Assembly (NCBI GenBank): GCA_934085675.1
Contig: CAKOHH010000001.1
Location: forward strand, 6,115 to 70,114
Length of the DNA stretch: 64,000 nucleotides
Source: an uncultured Bacilli bacterium
GTDB taxonomy: Bacteria; Bacillota_I; Bacilli_A; RF39; UBA660
Direction: 5' to 3'
Positions within the stretch are counted from its first letter, which is position 1, and every line of letters starts with the position of its first letter. Below the pieces are notes generated by a model. It worked only from the letters and a program-made list of their open reading frames with translations. It was not told the DNA's origin and did no database searches. Made by a program: the position numbers and the translations under genes. Below, in pieces: positions 34,427 to 55,588 of this stretch.

Positions 34427-35854
34427 TTAATATTGTTTACCAAAATAAATTTTATATTTAGCTTTTTCACCACAGTAAGCACAAACGCCATCACTAATTT
34501 CTTCTTTAATGCAACGACTTTTTAAACCTGTTTCTTCTTTAATTTTGTCTTCACAAGAAGTATTACCACACCAAGAAATTAAAATGAAACCTGGTTTATT
34601 TTGCGCAATATCCTGAAATTCTTCTTTCGTTTTTGCTTCATAAATCATGCTGTCACGTCTTTTTAAAGCTCTATCATACATATTGTTTTGAATGTCGACT
34701 AATAGTTTTTCTACTCTTTCTTTAAAAGCCGAAATAGCAATTGTTTCTTTTTCTAAAGTATCTCTTCTTACTAAAGTGATTTCTTTATTTTCTAAATCTC
34801 TTTTACCAATTTCCACGCGAATAGGAATACCTTTTACTTCCGCATCAGCAAATTTAAAGCCTGGTGATTTTTCAGATTCGTCAATTTGATATGTGATTTC
34901 TTCAGGAAGAGTGCTTGCTAATTCTTTTACCGTCTTTAAAACTTCTTCATCTTTGCCAATAGGAATAAATACCACTTTAGTAGGAGCAATATTAGGAGGT
35001 AAAACAAGACCATGATTATCGCCATGAGTCATGATAATGGCCCCAATCATTCTTGTTGTTACGCCCCAGCTTGTTTGATATGGTGTTTTTAAAGTATTGT
35101 CCGTATCTAGAAATTGAATACCAAAAGCTTTAGCAAAATGTTGGCCAAAATAATGGCTTGTACCATTTTGAAGTGCTACTCCATCATACATCATGGCTTC
35201 AATTGTATAAGTTTCTTCAGCACCAGCAAATTTTTCTTTTTCTGTTTTACGTCCTGTAATAACAGGTAAAGCTAGGATATTTCTTTGAAAATCTTCATAA
35301 ACCTTAAACATTCTAAGTGTTTCATTTCTCGCTTCTTCACGAGTTTGATGAAGAGTATGACCTTCTTGCCATAGTATTTCTCTACTTCTTAAAAAAGGTC
35401 TTGTTGTTTTTTCCCAACGCACAATCGTGCACCACTGATTATATAAAAGGGGTAAATCACGATAGGACTTTACAATATTTTTGAAGTGTTCGCAAAATAA
35501 AACTTCACTAGTAGGTCTAACACACATTCTTTCATCTAATTTATTTTCCCCACCATAAGTTACCCAAGCTACTTCTGGGGCAAAACCTTTAACATGTTCT
35601 TTTTCTACATTTAATAAAGATTCCGGAATAAACATTGGCATTTGAACATTTTGGTGACCTAATTTTTTGAATTCTTTATCTAATATTCTTTGCATATTTT
35701 CCCAAATCGCGTAGCCATATGGGCGAATAATCATGCTGCCTTTGACACTTGAATAACTTACTAAATCAGCTTGTTTTAAAACATCTGTGTACCATGTAGC
35801 AAAATCTGTATCTCGATCAGTTATTTTCGTTACTAGTTTGCTCATTTGTTTCAT
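34427..35854 (-). CDS. proS: Prolyl-tRNA synthetase (archaeal/eukaryote-like type without editing insertion)
   Basis: 475 aa class II; motif 2/3 and C-terminal zinc-binding CxxC...CxxC (CAYCGEKAKY). Confidence 0.92.
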   Translation of the reverse strand: MKQMSKLVTKITDRDTDFATWYTDVLKQADLVSYSSVKGSMIIRPYGYAIWENMQRILDKEFKKLGHQNVQMPMFIPESLLNVEKEHVKGFAPEVAWVTYGGENKLDERMCVRPTSEVLFCEHFKNIVKSYRDLPLLYNQWCTIVRWEKTTRPFLRSREILWQEGHTLHQTREEARNETLRMFKVYEDFQRNILALPVITGRKTEKEKFAGAEETYTIEAMMYDGVALQNGTSHYFGQHFAKAFGIQFLDTDNTLKTPYQTSWGVTTRMIGAIIMTHGDNHGLVLPPNIAPTKVVFIPIGKDEEVLKTVKELASTLPEEITYQIDESEKSPGFKFADAEVKGIPIRVEIGKRDLENKEITLVRRDTLEKETIAISAFKERVEKLLVDIQNNMYDRALKRRDSMIYEAKTKEEFQDIAQNKPGFILISWCGNTSCEDKIKEETGLKSRCIKEEISDGVCAYCGEKAKYKIYFGKQY

Positions 35855-36074
35855 CTTCTTTCATTAAAAAATCTTGGGCTTCACCGTCTGTACCGATGAT
35901 TTTATTCACTTGCTCTGTTGCATTATCTAATTTTTCTTGACATATTTTAACCAAGTTCATCGCATCTGTATATTTACTAATGGCGTCTTCCAAAGGAATA
36001 TTGCCGTTTTCTAAATCTTTAATGATCCCGTCTAAATTATTTAAAGCGGTTTCAAACGTCATTTCTTTCATCAT
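35817..36074 (-). CDS. xseB: Exodeoxyribonuclease VII small subunit
   Basis: 85 aa, FE.AL..LE.IV..LE.G motif; overlaps xseA stop. Confidence 0.85.
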   Translation of the reverse strand: MMKEMTFETALNNLDGIIKDLENGNIPLEDAISKYTDAMNLVKICQEKLDNATEQVNKIIGTDGEAQDFLMKEDETNEQTSNENN

Positions 36075-37398
36075 TTATCTCCTCTACTTTCACTTTTAAT
36101 GTTCCTTTTGCTAAAGTAACATCTAATTTATCGTTTATATTAATTTTAGCAGTATTTTTGATAATTTCGTTATCTTTTTTGACAATAGAATAGCCTTGTT
36201 CTAAGATATTTAAAGGATTAAGCAGTTTTAAATTTTGAATCGTATAATAAAGCAGTTGTTTTTTATCATTCATATATTTAACTATTTCTTTTTGTAAGGC
36301 TTCTTTTCTATCCCAATATCTTTCTAAAGATTTTTGATAAAGAACCTTAGGATTGTTCAATATATAATTGCCTTTATACTTATCTAATTTTACCTGTAAA
36401 GAATTTAAATAATAAGTATAACTTTTATTTAAATTATCGGTTAAATTATCTAATTTTTGCATTTTTACTTCATATAAAATATGTGGATTTTTTAATACAT
36501 AATGGTTACTTAAAATACTAAGTTGATGTTTAGCAAATTGAAGTTTAGACAAGAATAGATGATTAATTTCATCTTTTTTTTGAGTCAAAATAGTCATAAC
36601 TTCTTCTTTGGTTGGCACTGCCATTTCGGCTGCCCCTGTAGGAGTCGGTGCTCTTCTATCAGCTACATAATCGGCAATCGTAAAATCTATCTCATGACCA
36701 ACAGCACTAATAATAGGTATTTTAGAAGCAAAAATGGCTCTGGCTACTATTTCTTCATTAAAAGCCCATAAATCCTCAATGGAACCGCCACCTCGCCCAA
36801 CGATTAAAACATCAAGTTTATAATGATTAGCTAAATAAATATTTTTAGCAATATCCTTTGCCGCCGAAACACCTTGAACTAAACTAGGAAAAAGAAGGGT
36901 TTTAGCATATGGAAATCTTCTTTTTAAAGTGCTCAAAATATCTTTGATAGCTGCCCCTGTGGGCGCGGTAACAATACCTATTTTAGTAGGATATTTAGGA
37001 ATAGGCTTTTTGTATTTTGAATCAAATAAGCCTTCGCTCGCTAGTTTCTCTTTTAGTTTTTCAAATTCTATATAAAGATTACCTAGGCCATCCATTTCCA
37101 TTTTTTCAATATATATTTGGTAGTTTCCTCCCATAGGATAGACAGAAATACGTCCTGTTACTAAAACATTCATACCATCTTCTGGTTTAAAGTTCAAATT
37201 AGAAGCAGCACTTTTAAACATAATAGCACTTATTCTTGACTCGTCATCTTTAAGAGTTAAATAAAGATGTCCGGAAGAATGATGTTTAAAGTTACTAATT
37301 TCTCCTTTTAAATAAACTTTTTTTAAAAAAATATTAGTATCAAAAATATTTTTAATATAATTATTAATCTCAGCAACACTTAAATATTTAGGAATCAT
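36052..37398 (-). CDS. xseA: Exodeoxyribonuclease VII large subunit
   Basis: 448 aa; N-terminal OB-fold, GRGGGS catalytic region (VGRGGGSIEDLWAFNEE). Confidence 0.92.
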   Translation of the reverse strand: MIPKYLSVAEINNYIKNIFDTNIFLKKVYLKGEISNFKHHSSGHLYLTLKDDESRISAIMFKSAASNLNFKPEDGMNVLVTGRISVYPMGGNYQIYIEKMEMDGLGNLYIEFEKLKEKLASEGLFDSKYKKPIPKYPTKIGIVTAPTGAAIKDILSTLKRRFPYAKTLLFPSLVQGVSAAKDIAKNIYLANHYKLDVLIVGRGGGSIEDLWAFNEEIVARAIFASKIPIISAVGHEIDFTIADYVADRRAPTPTGAAEMAVPTKEEVMTILTQKKDEINHLFLSKLQFAKHQLSILSNHYVLKNPHILYEVKMQKLDNLTDNLNKSYTYYLNSLQVKLDKYKGNYILNNPKVLYQKSLERYWDRKEALQKEIVKYMNDKKQLLYYTIQNLKLLNPLNILEQGYSIVKKDNEIIKNTAKININDKLDVTLAKGTLKVKVEEINDERNDV

Positions 37399-38390
37399 AA
37401 GCTTCGATCCTTTACTAAACGACTCATTTGTTCATAATGTGGAACATAAACTCTTAAAATTTGTTCAGCATATTTTTTTAAATCTTCTTTTTGATAAATA
37501 TTTATAATACGTTCCATAGCTTCCTTGATATTTTCTGGTGTTAAAATATTTTGCTGACGATAAAATTCTTTTTTAAAATTTTCCGCCGAAGACGAAAAAT
37601 AACGTGTAAAATCCTCATAAATACTTTCTATACTGTTTTCATAAGATTTCATCGAATTATTTTTGTCTAAATCTGTAAAAAAACAATCAAAACTTAAATC
37701 AACATCATATAAAGGTGACAAAGTATAATTACCATAAATATCTATTATTTCCCAATTTTTAAGATGAAAATCTTTATTCATTATCATAAAGGAAAATAAG
37801 TAACGTTTTGTTAAATCTTTGACAATTCTTTCGGTAATAATTTGGCTATTTTCTTTATCTTTAAATTGAAAACTTAAAGCATCCCAGATAAAATTTAAAG
37901 AATTACAATTGACATGCCGGCGTTCAAAAGCAGCCATCATACCCTCTAAATACTGATCATGAAAATCTTCTTGTTCCTCAGGAGTTAAGGGAGTATCTAA
38001 CCATAAACATAGTAAATTATTAGAGTATAAATATTGTAAATAATTAATAACAATTTCTTTGCCTGATAAAATGTTATCATCATATTTAATATAATTGGTT
38101 GACATCAGGCCATAAATATTTGAACCAGCATCAACTATCTTAGAATGGACTGTTTCAATTCCAACCATTCTAGCTAGTTCTTCCCCAATTATTTGAACAA
38201 AAATTTCTTTAGAAATACCATTTTTTTTAGAAATTTTTAAAAAGTAATTTTCTCCTTCAATATCATTTAACCAATATCCTGAATAATAACAACCACACAA
38301 ATCATTTGGAACAACAGTGTGATTTTTAATAGCCTTTCGCCAATTTGGAACAATACTTTTAAGATTTACAATTCCATTATTAACTTCCAT
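37395..38390 (-). CDS. HipA-family kinase-like protein (HipT-sized), embedded in nusB-xseAB operon
   Basis: 331 aa; catalytic-loop-like DFHLKNWEI (cf HipA DDHLKNFS) and LSPLYDVD (cf HipA LAPAYD); start/stop overlap nusB and xseA; not FolD. Confidence 0.5.
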   Translation of the reverse strand: MEVNNGIVNLKSIVPNWRKAIKNHTVVPNDLCGCYYSGYWLNDIEGENYFLKISKKNGISKEIFVQIIGEELARMVGIETVHSKIVDAGSNIYGLMSTNYIKYDDNILSGKEIVINYLQYLYSNNLLCLWLDTPLTPEEQEDFHDQYLEGMMAAFERRHVNCNSLNFIWDALSFQFKDKENSQIITERIVKDLTKRYLFSFMIMNKDFHLKNWEIIDIYGNYTLSPLYDVDLSFDCFFTDLDKNNSMKSYENSIESIYEDFTRYFSSSAENFKKEFYRQQNILTPENIKEAMERIINIYQKEDLKKYAEQILRVYVPHYEQMSRLVKDRSL

Positions 38391-38785
38391 TAGGACTCCT
38401 TAACATATTTATCTAAAGAAGCATTAATCATATCAGCAAGTTCCTTATCAGTATAAGTTTTAGCAAGCTCTACAGCTTCATTTATAACGACAATTGCCGG
38501 AGTATCCATATATTTTAGTTCATAAAAAGCCATTCTTAAAATATTAGCGCCTGCTTTATCTAAACGATTTATTTTCCAATTGGTTAAATAAGTGTTACAT
38601 AATTTATCAATCTCATCTAAGTGTTGGGTGACTCCATTAACAACTAAGTATACAAAGTCATTTTCAATTTCTAAATTATCTTTTAAAATTTCATCCACAT
38701 TAATGTCATGCTTATTTTGTCTTAAAATATCAATTTGATATAAGCATGTCATACAAACTTTCCGTGCCTCACTTCTAGTAAGCAT
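38390..38785 (-). CDS. nusB: Transcription antitermination factor NusB
   Basis: 131 aa; RSEARKVCMTCLYQ...ILRMAFYEL...INEAVELAK motifs. Confidence 0.9.
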   Translation of the reverse strand: MLTRSEARKVCMTCLYQIDILRQNKHDINVDEILKDNLEIENDFVYLVVNGVTQHLDEIDKLCNTYLTNWKINRLDKAGANILRMAFYELKYMDTPAIVVINEAVELAKTYTDKELADMINASLDKYVKES

Positions 38786-38971
38786 CTAAATCACCTTCAT
38801 TCCTAACTATTTTATCAAAAAAAGATACAAGTTACTAGGCTAAATCAACCTTTTTCTTTGTATTTTTAAAGGCACCACGACCATATTTAGTGTCAATTAA
38901 GTGTCAACGTCTTATCTTTTATATTTTTAAAGTTCATTTAAAGGTATAATAAGTTTTTGAAAGAGGAAATT

Positions 38972-39793
38972 ATGGAAAAAATTGAAATTACAAAGAGCGA
39001 TTTAGAAAAACTTAAAATCATTGGTCGTGGAACAGAAGGAACAATTTATCAATATAGTAATGATGAATTAATTAAAATTTATCATAGTCATTCGGATTAT
39101 AATCAAGGAAAAAGGCAAAATATTATTGTTGATGAAAGTGGCGTTAATATAACACCTATTAAAAAGGTACAAAAGACAAATATTAAAGATCAAACGATTC
39201 AATATTTTGACACTGAAGGAGTTCGTTTAGCCAGAGAAGACGCGATTATAAAAGCCATTGAAGCCCAAAAAAATATTTATTTAACAAAACTACCCCAAAA
39301 AGCTGTATACCTAGATGGAAAAATAAGGGGATGTTCCTTATATTATCATAAACATGCCACAAATATTTATAATGTGATGCATATTCCTGTTTATAAATGG
39401 CGGTTAAAAATCGTTAAAGAAATTTTAAAAGAAGTAAAAGAGTTAGCAGATCATAATATTTATCATATTGATTTATGCCAACATCCTACTAAAGAAAATA
39501 AAAACACCAATATTTTACTCATGAGAGATTTTCATCCTGAGATTATTGATATTGATGGTCATTCTGCTATTTACTCTGAAACGCCAAGTGAATGTTATGA
39601 AAGGTCAACAACTCTTTCTTTAAGTGTCTTAGTAATTGAACTTTTATCTCGAGAGTACATTACTGATTTTTTGAGAAATCCCGAAGATATTGATCTTCAT
39701 GAGTTAGTAAGTGGGAAAATTCCTGAAGCCTTAATAGATGATTTTTTAAATGAAAAATTAACTTTAGAAAAGATTAGTAAACATTTATCTTAA
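38972..39793 (+). CDS. Protein-kinase-like (PKL/APH-fold) protein
   Basis: Gly-rich loop IIGRGTEGTIYQY, Lys in ELIKIY, catalytic-loop-like YHIDLCQHP...N, metal-binding-like IIDIDG; RBS AAGAGG before ATG 38972 (track TTG 38957). Confidence 0.55.
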   Translation: MEKIEITKSDLEKLKIIGRGTEGTIYQYSNDELIKIYHSHSDYNQGKRQNIIVDESGVNITPIKKVQKTNIKDQTIQYFDTEGVRLAREDAIIKAIEAQKNIYLTKLPQKAVYLDGKIRGCSLYYHKHATNIYNVMHIPVYKWRLKIVKEILKEVKELADHNIYHIDLCQHPTKENKNTNILLMRDFHPEIIDIDGHSAIYSETPSECYERSTTLSLSVLVIELLSREYITDFLRNPEDIDLHELVSGKIPEALIDDFLNEKLTLEKISKHLS

Positions 39794-39841: not shown

Positions 39842-40447
39842 TTAGTTTTCTTTTTTTCTAGTAAGACCAGTTTGATTTTGGTCTATTTCGTTTGCTTTTA
39901 AAGAATAATAAGAAAGACACCAATTATAACAAGGTATTGATGCAATTAAAGATACATTTTCTTGTAAGAAAGATATATTTTGACTTAAAATTGCTTGATT
40001 TATTTGACGATAGATTTCTCTTCTTTCCTTATAAATTGTTAGAATTTCTTCATCTGTTTTTCCTTCACAAGAAATATAAAAAGTATCAGCTCTATAAATT
40101 GCTCTTTCTTTTAAAGAACGTCCTACATCGGCAATACCAACAATAGCATTTATTTTCATAATATTATTAGGATTAAATTCATGCAACAATTTATGAATAA
40201 TAGGCATATCTTTAATCTTACAATTTTTCATAGGTAAATCAAGAATCTGATTTAATTTTTTCATGCTTTTGTGACAAATATAATATAAGTCAATAAATGA
40301 ATTTAAAGCACTTGTATAATCACCAGCATATAAGATTTTTAAAATAATTTGTTTTACTTCTAGACCATTTTTTAACTCACCATATTCATCAGGTAGTCCA
40401 AAGTGGTTAATGTAATAAGTTTTAACATTGTCCTCCATAATAATCAC
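39842..40447 (-). CDS. Hypothetical protein (201 aa)
   Basis: ORF between kinase-like gene and mutS; no recognisable motif. Confidence 0.5.
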   Translation of the reverse strand: MIIMEDNVKTYYINHFGLPDEYGELKNGLEVKQIILKILYAGDYTSALNSFIDLYYICHKSMKKLNQILDLPMKNCKIKDMPIIHKLLHEFNPNNIMKINAIVGIADVGRSLKERAIYRADTFYISCEGKTDEEILTIYKERREIYRQINQAILSQNISFLQENVSLIASIPCYNWCLSYYSLKANEIDQNQTGLTRKKEN

Positions 40448-49142: not shown

Positions 49143-49186
49143 AAACGCCTATCATAAAATAGAATTATGATTGGCGTTTTTTGACA
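49143..49186. terminator. Bidirectional terminator between def (+) and 375-aa gene (-)
   Basis: AAAAACGCC(A)...TGGCGTTTTTT; minus-strand gene stop codon lies inside the hairpin. Confidence 0.6.
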
Positions 49187-50292
49187 AGTACTTCTTTTGA
49201 TGATTCTTCAAAAGAAGTAAGACATTGTTTCATATTTTCATATAAAGACTTATAGGCATTTAATTCCATACGTAATTTTTGAATTTCCGCTGTTTTTTCA
49301 CTATCACTTTTTTTGAGTTCTTTATTTTCTATTTGCAAAGAATTTAATTCTTCTTTTAATTCTGAATATGTTAATTCATCACCTGCTCCAGCCTTAAAAT
49401 GAGAATTATTGATAGCATAGCAAAGTTTTTTTATATAAAAATCATCATAATCGGTACTAATTGGAAAAGCATTTTTACCAACAGAGGCCGTGATTTCTTC
49501 TAAGAAAGCATTGTTTCTTTCTTTTTCTAATGTCTTATCACGATTATTTAATAACACTCTTTCATAGTCACGAGAAACGACAATAGACATATCAAATTGA
49601 TTCGACCATTGTCTTAGTAATCGTAATCTCAATTTTTTTTCTTCGGAATTAAGCCACATTTTTTTATTAATTTTCTTAATAAAAAGTGTAGTTGGAAAAG
49701 AACACTCTTGTTTTTGTAAGTATTTCATATACTTATCAAGATTACTTTTATTCCAGCACATATTAGAAACAGGAATATAATGTGCATCTTCATCCTTACG
49801 TAAGCCTAATACGGCATAATCATCTTCCATTTCTTTAATAATTAAATAATCAACATCTATGGCTTCTGGTAAATCATCCTGCCAGTTTTTAGATTTATCA
49901 ATTTTTATTGTAGCAGCTACGGCTAACAAACCATAACGGATATTGGTTTCAAAAACTTTAATCTTTTCTTCAATCATCGGTGAAAAAAGCAAATTGAAAG
50001 CAATATTTTTCTTAATAAAATACCCATAAAAGCGATAATAATCATCTAACATATAACGAAGTAATTCAAAAGAATTCATTTTTTTGGTTTCTAATAATGG
50101 ATTGGCATTTTTAATCAAATCGGTATTCACCCCAAGTAAATGAGCAATTCTATTTTCATTAATTTTAAATTGTAAATTATCTCCTGAAGCTATATTGTAA
50201 TAAAAAGTAAAGTCCTTTGTCCGTAACTGTTCATAATATTCTAAACATTTTTTCAAAAGAATACATAATTTTTCATATTTTTCATAACTCAT
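49165..50292 (-). CDS. Hypothetical protein with C-terminal coiled coil (375 aa)
   Basis: ORF between def and smc; heptad-rich C-terminus (LKEELNSLQIENKELKK...). Confidence 0.55.
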   Translation of the reverse strand: MSYEKYEKLCILLKKCLEYYEQLRTKDFTFYYNIASGDNLQFKINENRIAHLLGVNTDLIKNANPLLETKKMNSFELLRYMLDDYYRFYGYFIKKNIAFNLLFSPMIEEKIKVFETNIRYGLLAVAATIKIDKSKNWQDDLPEAIDVDYLIIKEMEDDYAVLGLRKDEDAHYIPVSNMCWNKSNLDKYMKYLQKQECSFPTTLFIKKINKKMWLNSEEKKLRLRLLRQWSNQFDMSIVVSRDYERVLLNNRDKTLEKERNNAFLEEITASVGKNAFPISTDYDDFYIKKLCYAINNSHFKAGAGDELTYSELKEELNSLQIENKELKKSDSEKTAEIQKLRMELNAYKSLYENMKQCLTSFEESSKEVLVKKRQS

Positions 50293-55425: not shown

Positions 55426-55501
55426 TGTCCTCATAGTAAAATGGATATTACAAGATCCTCCTAAGATTTAGTTGTAGGTTCGATTCCTACTGGGGACACC
55501 A
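55426..55501 (+). tRNA. tRNA-Arg (anticodon CCU)
   Basis: Acceptor GTCCTCA/TGGGGAC (one G-U), D-arm GTAA/TTAC, anticodon loop CT-CCT-AA, T-arm GTAGG-TTCGATT-CCTAC, encoded CCA. Confidence 0.8.
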
Positions 55502-55502
55502 T

Positions 55503-55588
55503 GCAAGAATGGCGGAATTGGTAGACGCGCTACTTTGAGGGGGTAGTGAATTATATTCGTGGGAGTTCAAATCTCCTTTCTTGCACCA
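55503..55588 (+). tRNA. tRNA-Leu (anticodon GAG), type II with long variable arm
   Basis: Acceptor GCAAGAA/TTCTTGC perfect 7 bp, GGAATTGGTAGAC D-loop, anticodon loop TT-GAG-GG, 13-nt variable arm, T-loop TTCAAAT, encoded CCA. Confidence 0.85.

Follow-up and report, generated by a model that had tools for sequence, protein, structure and literature searches.

The 64-kb stretch of DNA from an uncultured Bacilli bacterium analyzed here (the window) encodes on its reverse strand five overlapping genes: nusB, a gene for a 331-aa protein that we predict to be a kinase, xseA, xseB, and proS (Table 1). The kinase gene is coupled to its neighbors on both sides, as the first-pass annotation had proposed: the nusB stop codon and the kinase start codon overlap by 1 nt in a TAATG junction, and the kinase stop codon and the xseA start codon by 4 nt in an ATGA junction. 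Further downstream, xseA and xseB overlap by 23 nt, and xseB and proS by 38 nt. We found no terminator-like site within the nusB-kinase-xseA-xseB-proS operon. The promoter-like site in the gap 5′ of nusB is suggestive by its placement alone and not by the number of such sites, as their count in the nusB upstream region is not above that of shuffled sequences. The overlaps imply that a single mRNA would carry the kinase together with NusB, exonuclease VII, and ProS. The gene lies in a chromosomal housekeeping operon, and its composition is like that of the adjacent genes (GC content of 26%, versus 29% for the window). A divergent neighboring open reading frame (38957–39793) also contains kinase-like motifs; its single-sequence structure model is unusable (pLDDT 32.5).

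Table 1. Genes and sequence features of the kinase operon, with positions in the window.
Feature	Position	Strand	Basis
Kinase gene, 331 aa, predicted CtkA/HipA-fold core kinase	37395..38390	-	
nusB, operon gene 1	38390..38785	-	PF01029, E 3e-30
xseA, exonuclease VII large subunit	36052..37398	-	PF02601, E 8e-100
xseB, exonuclease VII small subunit	35817..36074	-	PF02609, E 2e-17
proS, last of five overlapping genes	34427..35854	-	tRNA-synt_2b, HGTP_anticodon, ProRS-C_1 domains
Shine-Dalgarno AAGGAG of kinase gene, within nusB 3′ end	38396..38401	-	Sequence reading
Promoter-like site TTGACA-16-TATGGT, in 171-bp gap 5′ of nusB	38880..38907	-	Consensus scan
K52 codon, predicted ATP-binding beta3 lysine	38235..38237	-	Aligns with K of CtkA ‘YMVKFP’
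Q66 codon, alphaC glutamate position	38193..38195	-	
Catalytic loop D207-F-H-L-K-N212	37755..37772	-	
Mg-binding motif S225-P-L-Y-D229	37704..37718	-	

The 331-aa protein matches the Pfam model HipA_C (PF07804) over residues 188–294 with 36.4 bits (gathering threshold 30.5, E 5.7e-9). The predicted kinase is core-only, and its HipT-like size agrees with the initial reading. The same model is matched by 34 of 52 family members at E ≤ 0.01. The initial assignment to HipA/HipT stands at the level of the HipA_C superfamily but needs correction below it: the closest characterized relative, both by profile and by fold and over both lobes, is CtkA and not HipA or HipT. The literature searched contained no paper with a structural comparison of CtkA and HipA. 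The family comprises about 130 clusters at 50% identity from low-GC gut and rumen Bacilli and carries no prior annotation. It was revealed by an exhaustive HMMER search, while a word-indexed search gave three close clusters only, and just five proteins when repeated with the 52-sequence alignment. The diverse family alignment contains no conserved stretch of 7–10 residues. Judged from sequence, the gene is real and conserved and its predicted product is a HipA/CtkA-type protein kinase without an antitoxin partner; its family is an unannotated branch of these kinases that has no partner gene.

Two of the motifs by which Hip kinases are recognized (Gerdes et al., 2021; PMC8262856), the catalytic D-x-H-x-K-N and the Mg2+-binding x-P-x-Y-D, are present in the 331-aa protein. 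Residues D207 to N212 align with D309 to N314 of HipA, with DMHLKN of HipT(Lp), and with DRHNGN of CtkA, while S-P-L-Y-D229 aligns with HipA D332 and with SPAYD of HipT(Lp). The expected superposition of the two motifs on HipA D309/H311/K313/N314 and D332 was thereby borne out by alignment. Since the global hhalign alignment to E. coli HipA is reliable in the C-lobe only (N-lobe confidence is zero), we relied on the CtkA profile alignment for equivalences in the N-lobe. Across the 108 members of the family alignment, a lysine occupies the K52 position in 105, D207 and N212 are found in all, and D229 is invariant; the same four residues are also kept in every member of known gene context. The alphaC position is more variable. 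It is a glutamate in 94 of 108 members, as in CtkA (‘FSEYVA’), a glutamine in the window clade, and A, S, or N in P0022, P0027, and P0025. Because of the change from Glu to Gln, kinase activity in the window clade could be weak or atypical. Neither the Gly-rich loop of the HipA/HipT type (S-x-x-G-x-Q-x-K) nor its autophosphorylated Ser is conserved across the family. In the window clade, the loop before strand 36–44, which leads to the K52 hairpin, contains L-C-G-C-Y-Y-S-G-Y-W.

These proteins might not be protein Ser/Thr kinases at all, but pseudokinases or scaffolds that bind nucleotide or partners, or small-molecule or lipid kinases of the same fold. We consider this quite improbable, as the Lys, the catalytic Asp, the Asn, and the metal-binding Asp remain invariant at an overall identity of 20–25%, which argues for retained phosphotransfer, and as the closest relatives by sequence and by fold (CtkA, HipA, and HipT) are protein Ser/Thr kinases.

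The similarity to characterized systems is limited. CtkA (JHP0940) of Helicobacter pylori (PDB 3akj/3akk/3akl) shares only 10–13% identity with the window kinase. Its gene is carried by the tfs3 ICE, and the protein has been investigated as a pro-inflammatory Ser/Thr kinase that is secreted (PMC5536186), whereas the window kinase is a chromosomal operon cistron of gut Bacilli with no mobile-element, ICE/T4SS, or secreted-effector context; the alphaC Glu of CtkA is, moreover, the position replaced by Gln in the window clade. Compared with HipT of hipBST (E. coli O127, 7ab3; Legionella, 8ezr/7wcf) and HipA of hipBA (E. coli, 3tpd; Shewanella, 4pu3), the sequence match is confined to the C-lobe (residues 188–294), the Gly-rich loop and the autophosphorylation Ser are not conserved, and the gene lies outside any toxin-antitoxin-like bicistron or tricistron. 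While hipB and hipS lie immediately upstream of hipT in hipBST, the window kinase is preceded by nusB (PF01029). Short clade-XI Hip kinases (HipI, HipJ, HipM, and HipG) are likewise core-only (279–321 aa) and some occur in Firmicutes; their defining feature is the partner gene that follows them (HipS-like/HIRAN, HipS, resolvase-like, or Stl-like; PMC8262856). PDC-M03 consists of a HipA and a HIRAN protein (PMC13245101). Unlike the clade-XI kinases and PDC-M03A, the window kinase has no partner gene of this kind. It resembles HipH/YjjJ in being a solitary Hip-type kinase without an adjacent antitoxin gene (PMC8262856), but HipH is extended at its N terminus by an HTH region of about 100 aa, whereas the window kinase has no HTH and resides in a housekeeping operon. 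Membership of HipH was rejected (14 bits against the NCBIfam YjjJ model, with a cut-off of 401 bits).

No antitoxin-like partner (HipB, HipS, or HIRAN) adjoins the kinase gene, which is flanked by nusB and xseA. The absence of a small HipB/HipS-like neighbor noted initially was confirmed with Pfam, NCBIfam, and PADLOC, none of which returned a partner gene among the flanking open reading frames, and neither of two nearby open reading frames (278 and 201 aa) matches an HTH, HipS, or HIRAN domain. The locus thus lacks a toxin-antitoxin type of organization, be it an adjacent HipB, HipS, HipN, HipP, or HipR or an HTH, HipS, or HIRAN domain in cis, and the first-pass label ‘persistence-type’ finds no support, there being no sign of a toxin-antitoxin module. 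The best PADLOC matches of the kinase are to PDC-M03A, with E values from 5e-10 to 8.5e-6, and one is near full-length (kinase residues 39–254 versus profile positions 27–214 of 305). The A-gene HMMs of the two-gene PDC-M03 definition are thus matched (E 5e-10), but the HIRAN partner gene is missing. Tblastn searches of phage and plasmid collections returned no relatives of the kinase, and IMG/VR contained none, neither of the window kinase nor of a second family copy in a related locus (L021). These searches and the composition of the gene, which matches that of its neighbors, gave no sign of a mobile-element origin.

The gene between nusB and xseA was initially described as lying where folD normally does. 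We found that this description is only partly right and holds for more distant Firmicutes alone. Of 88 related xseA loci, 40 have nothing in the slot, 20 have the kinase, eight have FolD, and 11 have other genes, with nine loci unscorable. In S. aureus, nusB and xseA have consecutive locus tags (PMC7829806). Unrelated genes fill the slot in other lineages, so it may simply be permissive. When E. coli FolD was used as a tblastn query, the eight other loci were matched (1e-83 to 1e-87), and no match was found anywhere in the 64-kb window. Because FolD holds the same slot in these eight more distant loci, the kinase could be imagined as a functional FolD replacement at the folD position of a nusB-folD-xseA operon. 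As observed from the outset, however, it is unlike FolD, with no Pfam match to the THF dehydrogenase/cyclohydrolase domains and no similarity in fold; the nearest lineages usually have an empty slot, and no dehydrogenase or cyclohydrolase chemistry is plausible for a kinase fold. The fold assignment effectively refutes this explanation.

The nusB-X-xseA order is kept in seven orthologue clusters, P0003 (63% identity), P0004 (42%), P0006 (38%), P0008 (33%), P0022 (24%), P0025 (22%), and P0027 (24%), thus down to an identity floor of 22–26%, and in eight further metagenome loci. The kinase is under purifying selection (dN/dS 0.10 and 0.25) and changes two- to fivefold faster than the adjacent genes. 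The gene is a long-resident positional orthologue, and its initial description as ‘inserted’ finds no support. Nonetheless, the nested relative L016 and the majority of related lineages lack it, which indicates that it is dispensable and would also fit an accessory or defence role. Neighbor-joining trees are crude at such divergence and served for presence/absence patterns only.

Other members of the family are found in DNA-repair operons. Two members with a mutual identity of only 42% lie between ruvA and ruvB, and others are located directly upstream of ligA (X-X-ligA) or between xseA and xseB (xseA-[Bro-N, X, GNAT]-xseB). The second family copy in L021 and L025 adjoins a Bro-N protein and a GNAT protein. 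This association counts about six independent contexts, picked post hoc. The ruvAB, ligA, and xseA-xseB contexts of these sister members raise the speculation that the substrate or signal of the kinase may concern DNA repair or recombination. A more far-reaching proposal is a DNA-repair-coupled signaling kinase, wired into the ExoVII, RuvAB, and LigA operons of gut Bacilli with reduced genomes, that would phosphorylate the co-translated repair enzymes or report their state. It would then be the functional counterpart, in prokaryotes, of PI3K-like DNA-damage kinases, members of the same fold superfamily. We regard this proposal as unlikely.

An explanation to be taken seriously, albeit on the unlikely side, is that the protein acts as an orphan toxin of the HipA-like kind or as a defence kinase of abortive infection. 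Its restraint would come in cis, through autophosphorylation or low activity for instance, rather than from a separate antitoxin, and when triggered it would halt growth by phosphorylating a translation factor, for example an aminoacyl-tRNA synthetase. The kinase is a HipA_C member, its top PADLOC match is the kinase of a candidate HipA+HIRAN defence pair (PMC13245101), there are precedents for monocistronic Hip kinases, HipH/YjjJ among them (PMC8262856), and proS shares the operon. Fast evolution, patchy presence (including the loss in L016), and the second copy next to Bro-N and GNAT in L021 and L025 point in the same direction. Against these observations, no antitoxin, HTH, HipS, or HIRAN domain occurs in cis or adjacent, constitutive expression would follow from the translational coupling to housekeeping genes, and the Gly-rich loop Ser of HipA/HipT autoregulation is not conserved. 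In addition, the gene has been retained vertically in one chromosomal slot down to 22–26% identity at a dN/dS of 0.1–0.25, phage, plasmid, and IMG/VR contigs have no relatives, and the proS linkage exists in L016 without the kinase.

Our preferred reading, to which we assign a probability of roughly 0.55, is that of a resident, catalytically competent orphan kinase that is co-expressed with NusB, ExoVII, and ProS and is possibly linked to DNA repair. The absence of an adjacent antitoxin, the slot kept under purifying selection, and the lack of phage or plasmid relatives argue for a resident kinase rather than a classical hipBA/hipBST toxin, and the relatives within other DNA-repair operons likewise make it look resident and not like a classical persistence toxin. 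As a core-only HipA/CtkA-fold enzyme keeping K52, D207, N212, and D229, it would, by analogy to CtkA, HipA, and HipT, pass phosphate from ATP to a Ser/Thr of a protein substrate and act as a constitutively co-expressed regulator of this lineage of gut Bacilli.

HipA-type kinases have been seen almost wholly as toxins of toxin-antitoxin and defence systems, with families defined by antitoxin context (PMC8262856). Here, a whole branch of Hip/CtkA kinases has no partner, keeps its catalytic residues under purifying selection, and is coupled into nusB-xseAB-proS, ruvAB, and ligA operons of abundant uncultured Bacilli of the human gut and the rumen. If active, these proteins would extend the reach of Hip/CtkA kinases beyond conflict systems to resident cellular regulation, with ExoVII, RuvAB, NusB, and ProS as candidate substrates. 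If they are self-limited toxins instead, they would represent a new housing for a toxin, inside an essential operon. In either case, proteins that are now labelled ‘hypothetical protein [Bacilli bacterium]’ gain a name and a hypothesis.

The kinase ORF is embedded in the nusB-xseA-xseB operon, as the first-pass annotation had read it, and every detail observed there holds. In coding-strand orientation, base 38390 belongs both to the nusB stop codon and to the start codon of the ORF (TAATG), and positions 37395-37398 (ATGA) join the stop of the ORF to the start of xseA; these are the 1-nt and 4-nt overlaps originally claimed. The ORF has a strong Shine-Dalgarno sequence, and AAGGA precedes the xseA start. 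Pfam identifies the flanking genes as NusB, Exonuc_VII_L, Exonuc_VII_S, and ProS. Since xseA and xseB overlap by 23 nt and xseB and proS by 38 nt, the junctions overlap throughout and the five genes form one overlapping unit. A promoter-like TTGACA-16-TATGGT lies in the 171-bp gap 5' of nusB, and no terminator-like site was detected within the unit; over the full scan, sites were no more numerous than in shuffled sequence. The kinase gene is probably cotranscribed with nusB-xseAB-proS.

Coordinates of the kinase gene, of other window genes, and of features in related loci (L numbers)
Feature	Sequence	Coordinates	Strand	Remark
Kinase ORF	window	37395..38390	-	331 aa
Shine-Dalgarno AAGGAG	window	38396-38401		within last nusB codons
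Kinase-motif ORF	window	38957-39793	+	278 aa
ORF between mutS and 278-aa ORF	window	39842-40447	-	201 aa
PBECR4 protein	window	49165-50292	-	375 aa
Two adjacent tRNA genes	window	55427-55585	+	Rfam scan
ruvA-X-ruvB kinases (P0015, P0021)	L100, L101	1516-2511, 2100-3032
P0037 kinase pair	L015	829-2686		297 and 319 aa
xseA-xseB insert	L021	5483-7678		three genes
TsaD/Kae1-like slot gene	L080	2972-3907
TsaD/Kae1-like slot gene	L086	3054-3992
TsaD/Kae1-like slot gene	L088	460-1401
TsaD/Kae1-like slot gene	L093	3013-3981
TsaD/Kae1-like slot gene	L094	3040-3999
Membrane protein in slot	L078	2876-3904		342 aa; also in L079, L083

The protein has a HipA_C-superfamily kinase fold, with CtkA as its closest relative. 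Pfam HipA_C matches residues 188-294 significantly (E 5.7e-9; 36.4 bits against a gathering score of 30.5), in line with the initial assignment. Both motifs noted at first are present (DFHLKNWEI, residues 207-215; LSPLYDVD, residues 224-231) and superimpose on the catalytic residues of E. coli HipA (reference sequence 100% identical to PDB 2wiu_A): in an hhalign alignment with the family, D207 corresponds to D309, H209 to H311, K211 to K313, N212 to N314, and D229 to D332. A four-sequence profile built from the closest homologues matches Legionella HipT in the PDB (E 3e-4), with MNKDFHLKN aligned to GNEDMHLKN and SPLYD to SPAYD. With the family profile, CtkA is the top sequence match in the PDB (E 8.6e-11); the alignment includes the catalytic region and the N-lobe, where K52, the predicted ATP-binding lysine, falls on 'YMVKFP' and position 66, the alphaC Glu position, on 'FSEYVA'. 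The protein probably works like a core kinase of the CtkA/HipT type.

A word-indexed search retrieved only three clusters of close homologues (98, 85, and 63% identity); when 1.84 billion representatives were searched exhaustively with HMMER, a family of 129 clusters at E<=1e-3 emerged, nearly all 290-335 aa long. Functional names are absent from all members looked up, whose sole label is 'hypothetical protein [Bacilli bacterium]'. The alignment of full-length members shows no exception at D207, N212, or D229, and 105 of its 108 sequences have K52. The conservation of these phosphotransfer residues among sequences with a mere 20-25% identity argues for catalysis probably being kept family-wide. 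The catalytic loop reads Q-x-D-R-H-x-x-N-W-E in remoter members, versus N-K-D-F-H-L-K-N-W-E. At position 66, 94 of 108 members have Glu; the window clade (the query and its close relatives) has Gln, and P0022, P0027, and P0025 have Ala, Ser, or Asn. There is no conserved version of the HipA/HipT-type Gly-rich loop across the family alignment; in the window clade, L-C-G-C-Y-Y-S-G-Y-W precedes the K52-bearing beta-hairpin. The Gln of the window clade and the lack of a conserved Gly-rich loop would fit a pseudokinase or a non-protein kinase, which we hold to be improbable beside the retained phosphotransfer residues. P0083 (522 aa) is an apparent fusion of two kinase modules (HipA_C, 45-161; HipA_2/PI3_PI4_kinase, 296-469), and P0030, P0072, and P0100, among several members of about 505-515 aa, are extended at the C terminus by about 200 aa that match nothing in Pfam.

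Hip kinases share four motifs, and their individual families are set by toxin-antitoxin gene organization (Gerdes et al., PMC8262856). The query has the catalytic and Mg motifs; its locus lacks toxin-antitoxin organization and, as claimed before for a HipB/HipS-like one, any adjacent partner gene. With this gene organization and the closer relationship to CtkA, the earlier label of a HipT-type persistence kinase needs revision. The query cannot be filed under the HipA, HipT, HipH, or clade-XI families, and it differs from CtkA, which has an ICE context (PMC5536186), in having none. We rate it as belonging to the HipA/CtkA superfamily, in a subfamily of orphan kinases embedded in operons.

The nusB-X-xseA placement (X being a family kinase) is conserved among relatives. 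The 63%-identical orthologue, from 'uncultured Bacilli' assemblies of the human gut (Hadza among others), has the same mutS..nusB-X-xseA-xseB-proS..spoIVB surroundings with identical overlaps, and the placement recurs for P0004 (42% identity), P0006 (38%), P0008 (33%), P0022 and P0027 (24% each), P0025 (22%), and eight more metagenome loci. In a crude XseA tree, the window clade (window, L001-L007, L010, L014, L096, L098) carries the kinase throughout except in the nested L016, which implies vertical inheritance with loss. No relatives were found in 50,697 phage and 72,556 plasmid records (tblastn) or in scans of IMG/VR, and the GC content of the gene (26.4%) matches that of the window (28.9%). 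Identities between the window and L001 are 94% for MutS, 82% for NusB, 77% for XseA, and 63% for the kinase (74, 57, 57, and 25% for L014), so the kinase is changing at a far higher rate than the genes around it. Selection on it is nonetheless purifying, with dN/dS of 0.10 against L005 and 0.25 against L001 (neighbours, 0.02-0.18). The fast evolution and patchy presence, together with PADLOC matches to PDC-M03A (E 5e-10), PDC-M03 being a HipA + HIRAN pair (PMC13245101), could also point to an orphan kinase that limits itself and serves as a toxin or in defence, a possibility to which we give limited credence for this partner-less, vertically inherited gene.

The ORF had also been placed at the normal position of folD. 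B. subtilis has the order nusB-folD-xseA-xseB. We surveyed 88 loci, 80 with XseA at 40-65% identity (metagenome scan, XseA alignment) plus the earlier ones. FolD does occupy the slot in eight, all of a remoter outgroup (XseA identity 42-44%), but the slot is empty in 40 and holds a family kinase in 20, so the position is not generally that of folD. Other genes fill it in 11 loci: one type is ASKHA TsaD-like (~312 aa), another encodes a membrane protein resembling acyltransferases, and the third is a 123-aa ORF; nine were not scorable (locus cut, or no upstream nusB). The TsaD/Kae1-like genes (by eye; start M..GIDTSNYTTS, ~312-322 aa), from remoter, partly high-GC relatives, indicate that the slot hosts different genes per lineage. 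The membrane protein, from another lineage again, is multi-pass and acyltransferase-like by eye. The S. aureus nusB and xseA have consecutive locus tags (PMC7829806). No FolD homologue lies within the 64-kb window, and replacement of FolD by the kinase is extremely improbable.

Family members also occur in other operons. P0015 and P0021 (42% mutual identity, ~30% to the query) are arranged as ruvA-X-ruvB with 4-9 nt separating adjacent genes, a second conserved placement within a DNA-repair operon. P0037 and its tandem paralogue, both HipA_C-like, are directly 5' of the NAD-dependent DNA ligase gene ligA, which the pair overlaps by ~20 nt. Besides the kinase in the nusB-xseA slot, L021, L022, L024, and L025 encode a further one of more canonical type (GDRHAGNY, 269 aa) between xseA and xseB, flanked by a Bro-N protein (277 aa) and a GNAT acetyltransferase (178 aa). 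P0009 and P0064 are standalone, the former at most two genes from a uracil-DNA glycosylase and the latter within the same distance of a 3-methyladenine glycosylase. The K/D/N/D set is intact in every one of them. Of some six independent contexts, four are in or against DNA-repair or recombination operons, a suggestive count made post hoc from few look-ups.

Divergent from nusB is the 278-aa ORF, with eukaryotic-like kinase motifs by eye (IGRGTEGTIY..K, HIDL..N, IDIDG). Its PDB matches, PINK1 and an effector of the Legionella Dot/Icm system, are all sub-threshold (E 0.02-0.4); it has no family in Pfam, NCBIfam, or PADLOC, and its single-sequence AlphaFold model is unusable (pLDDT 32.5); it is 61-79% conserved in L001 and L005 and absent from L010 and L014. 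The 201-aa ORF, without family match, is the fastest-evolving gene of the neighbourhood (48% identity where MutS has 94%; dN/dS 0.42). The PBECR4 protein (phage-Barnase-EndoU-ColicinE5/D-RelE-like nuclease 4; Pfam, E 8e-8) is encoded amid housekeeping genes and is a possible toxin or nuclease of defence. Besides tRNA, no Rfam family scored above threshold in the window.

With a probability of about 0.55, we read the protein as a catalytically competent, core-only Ser/Thr kinase that would be made alongside NusB, ExoVII, and ProS by cotranslation and would serve the cell as a resident regulator rather than as the toxin of a toxin-antitoxin pair. That its substrate relates to DNA repair would extend this reading speculatively. 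Partner-less Hip/CtkA kinases wired into nusB-xseAB and ruvAB operons would surprise specialists in toxin-antitoxin systems and kinases, and the substrates of the predicted kinase are directly testable.
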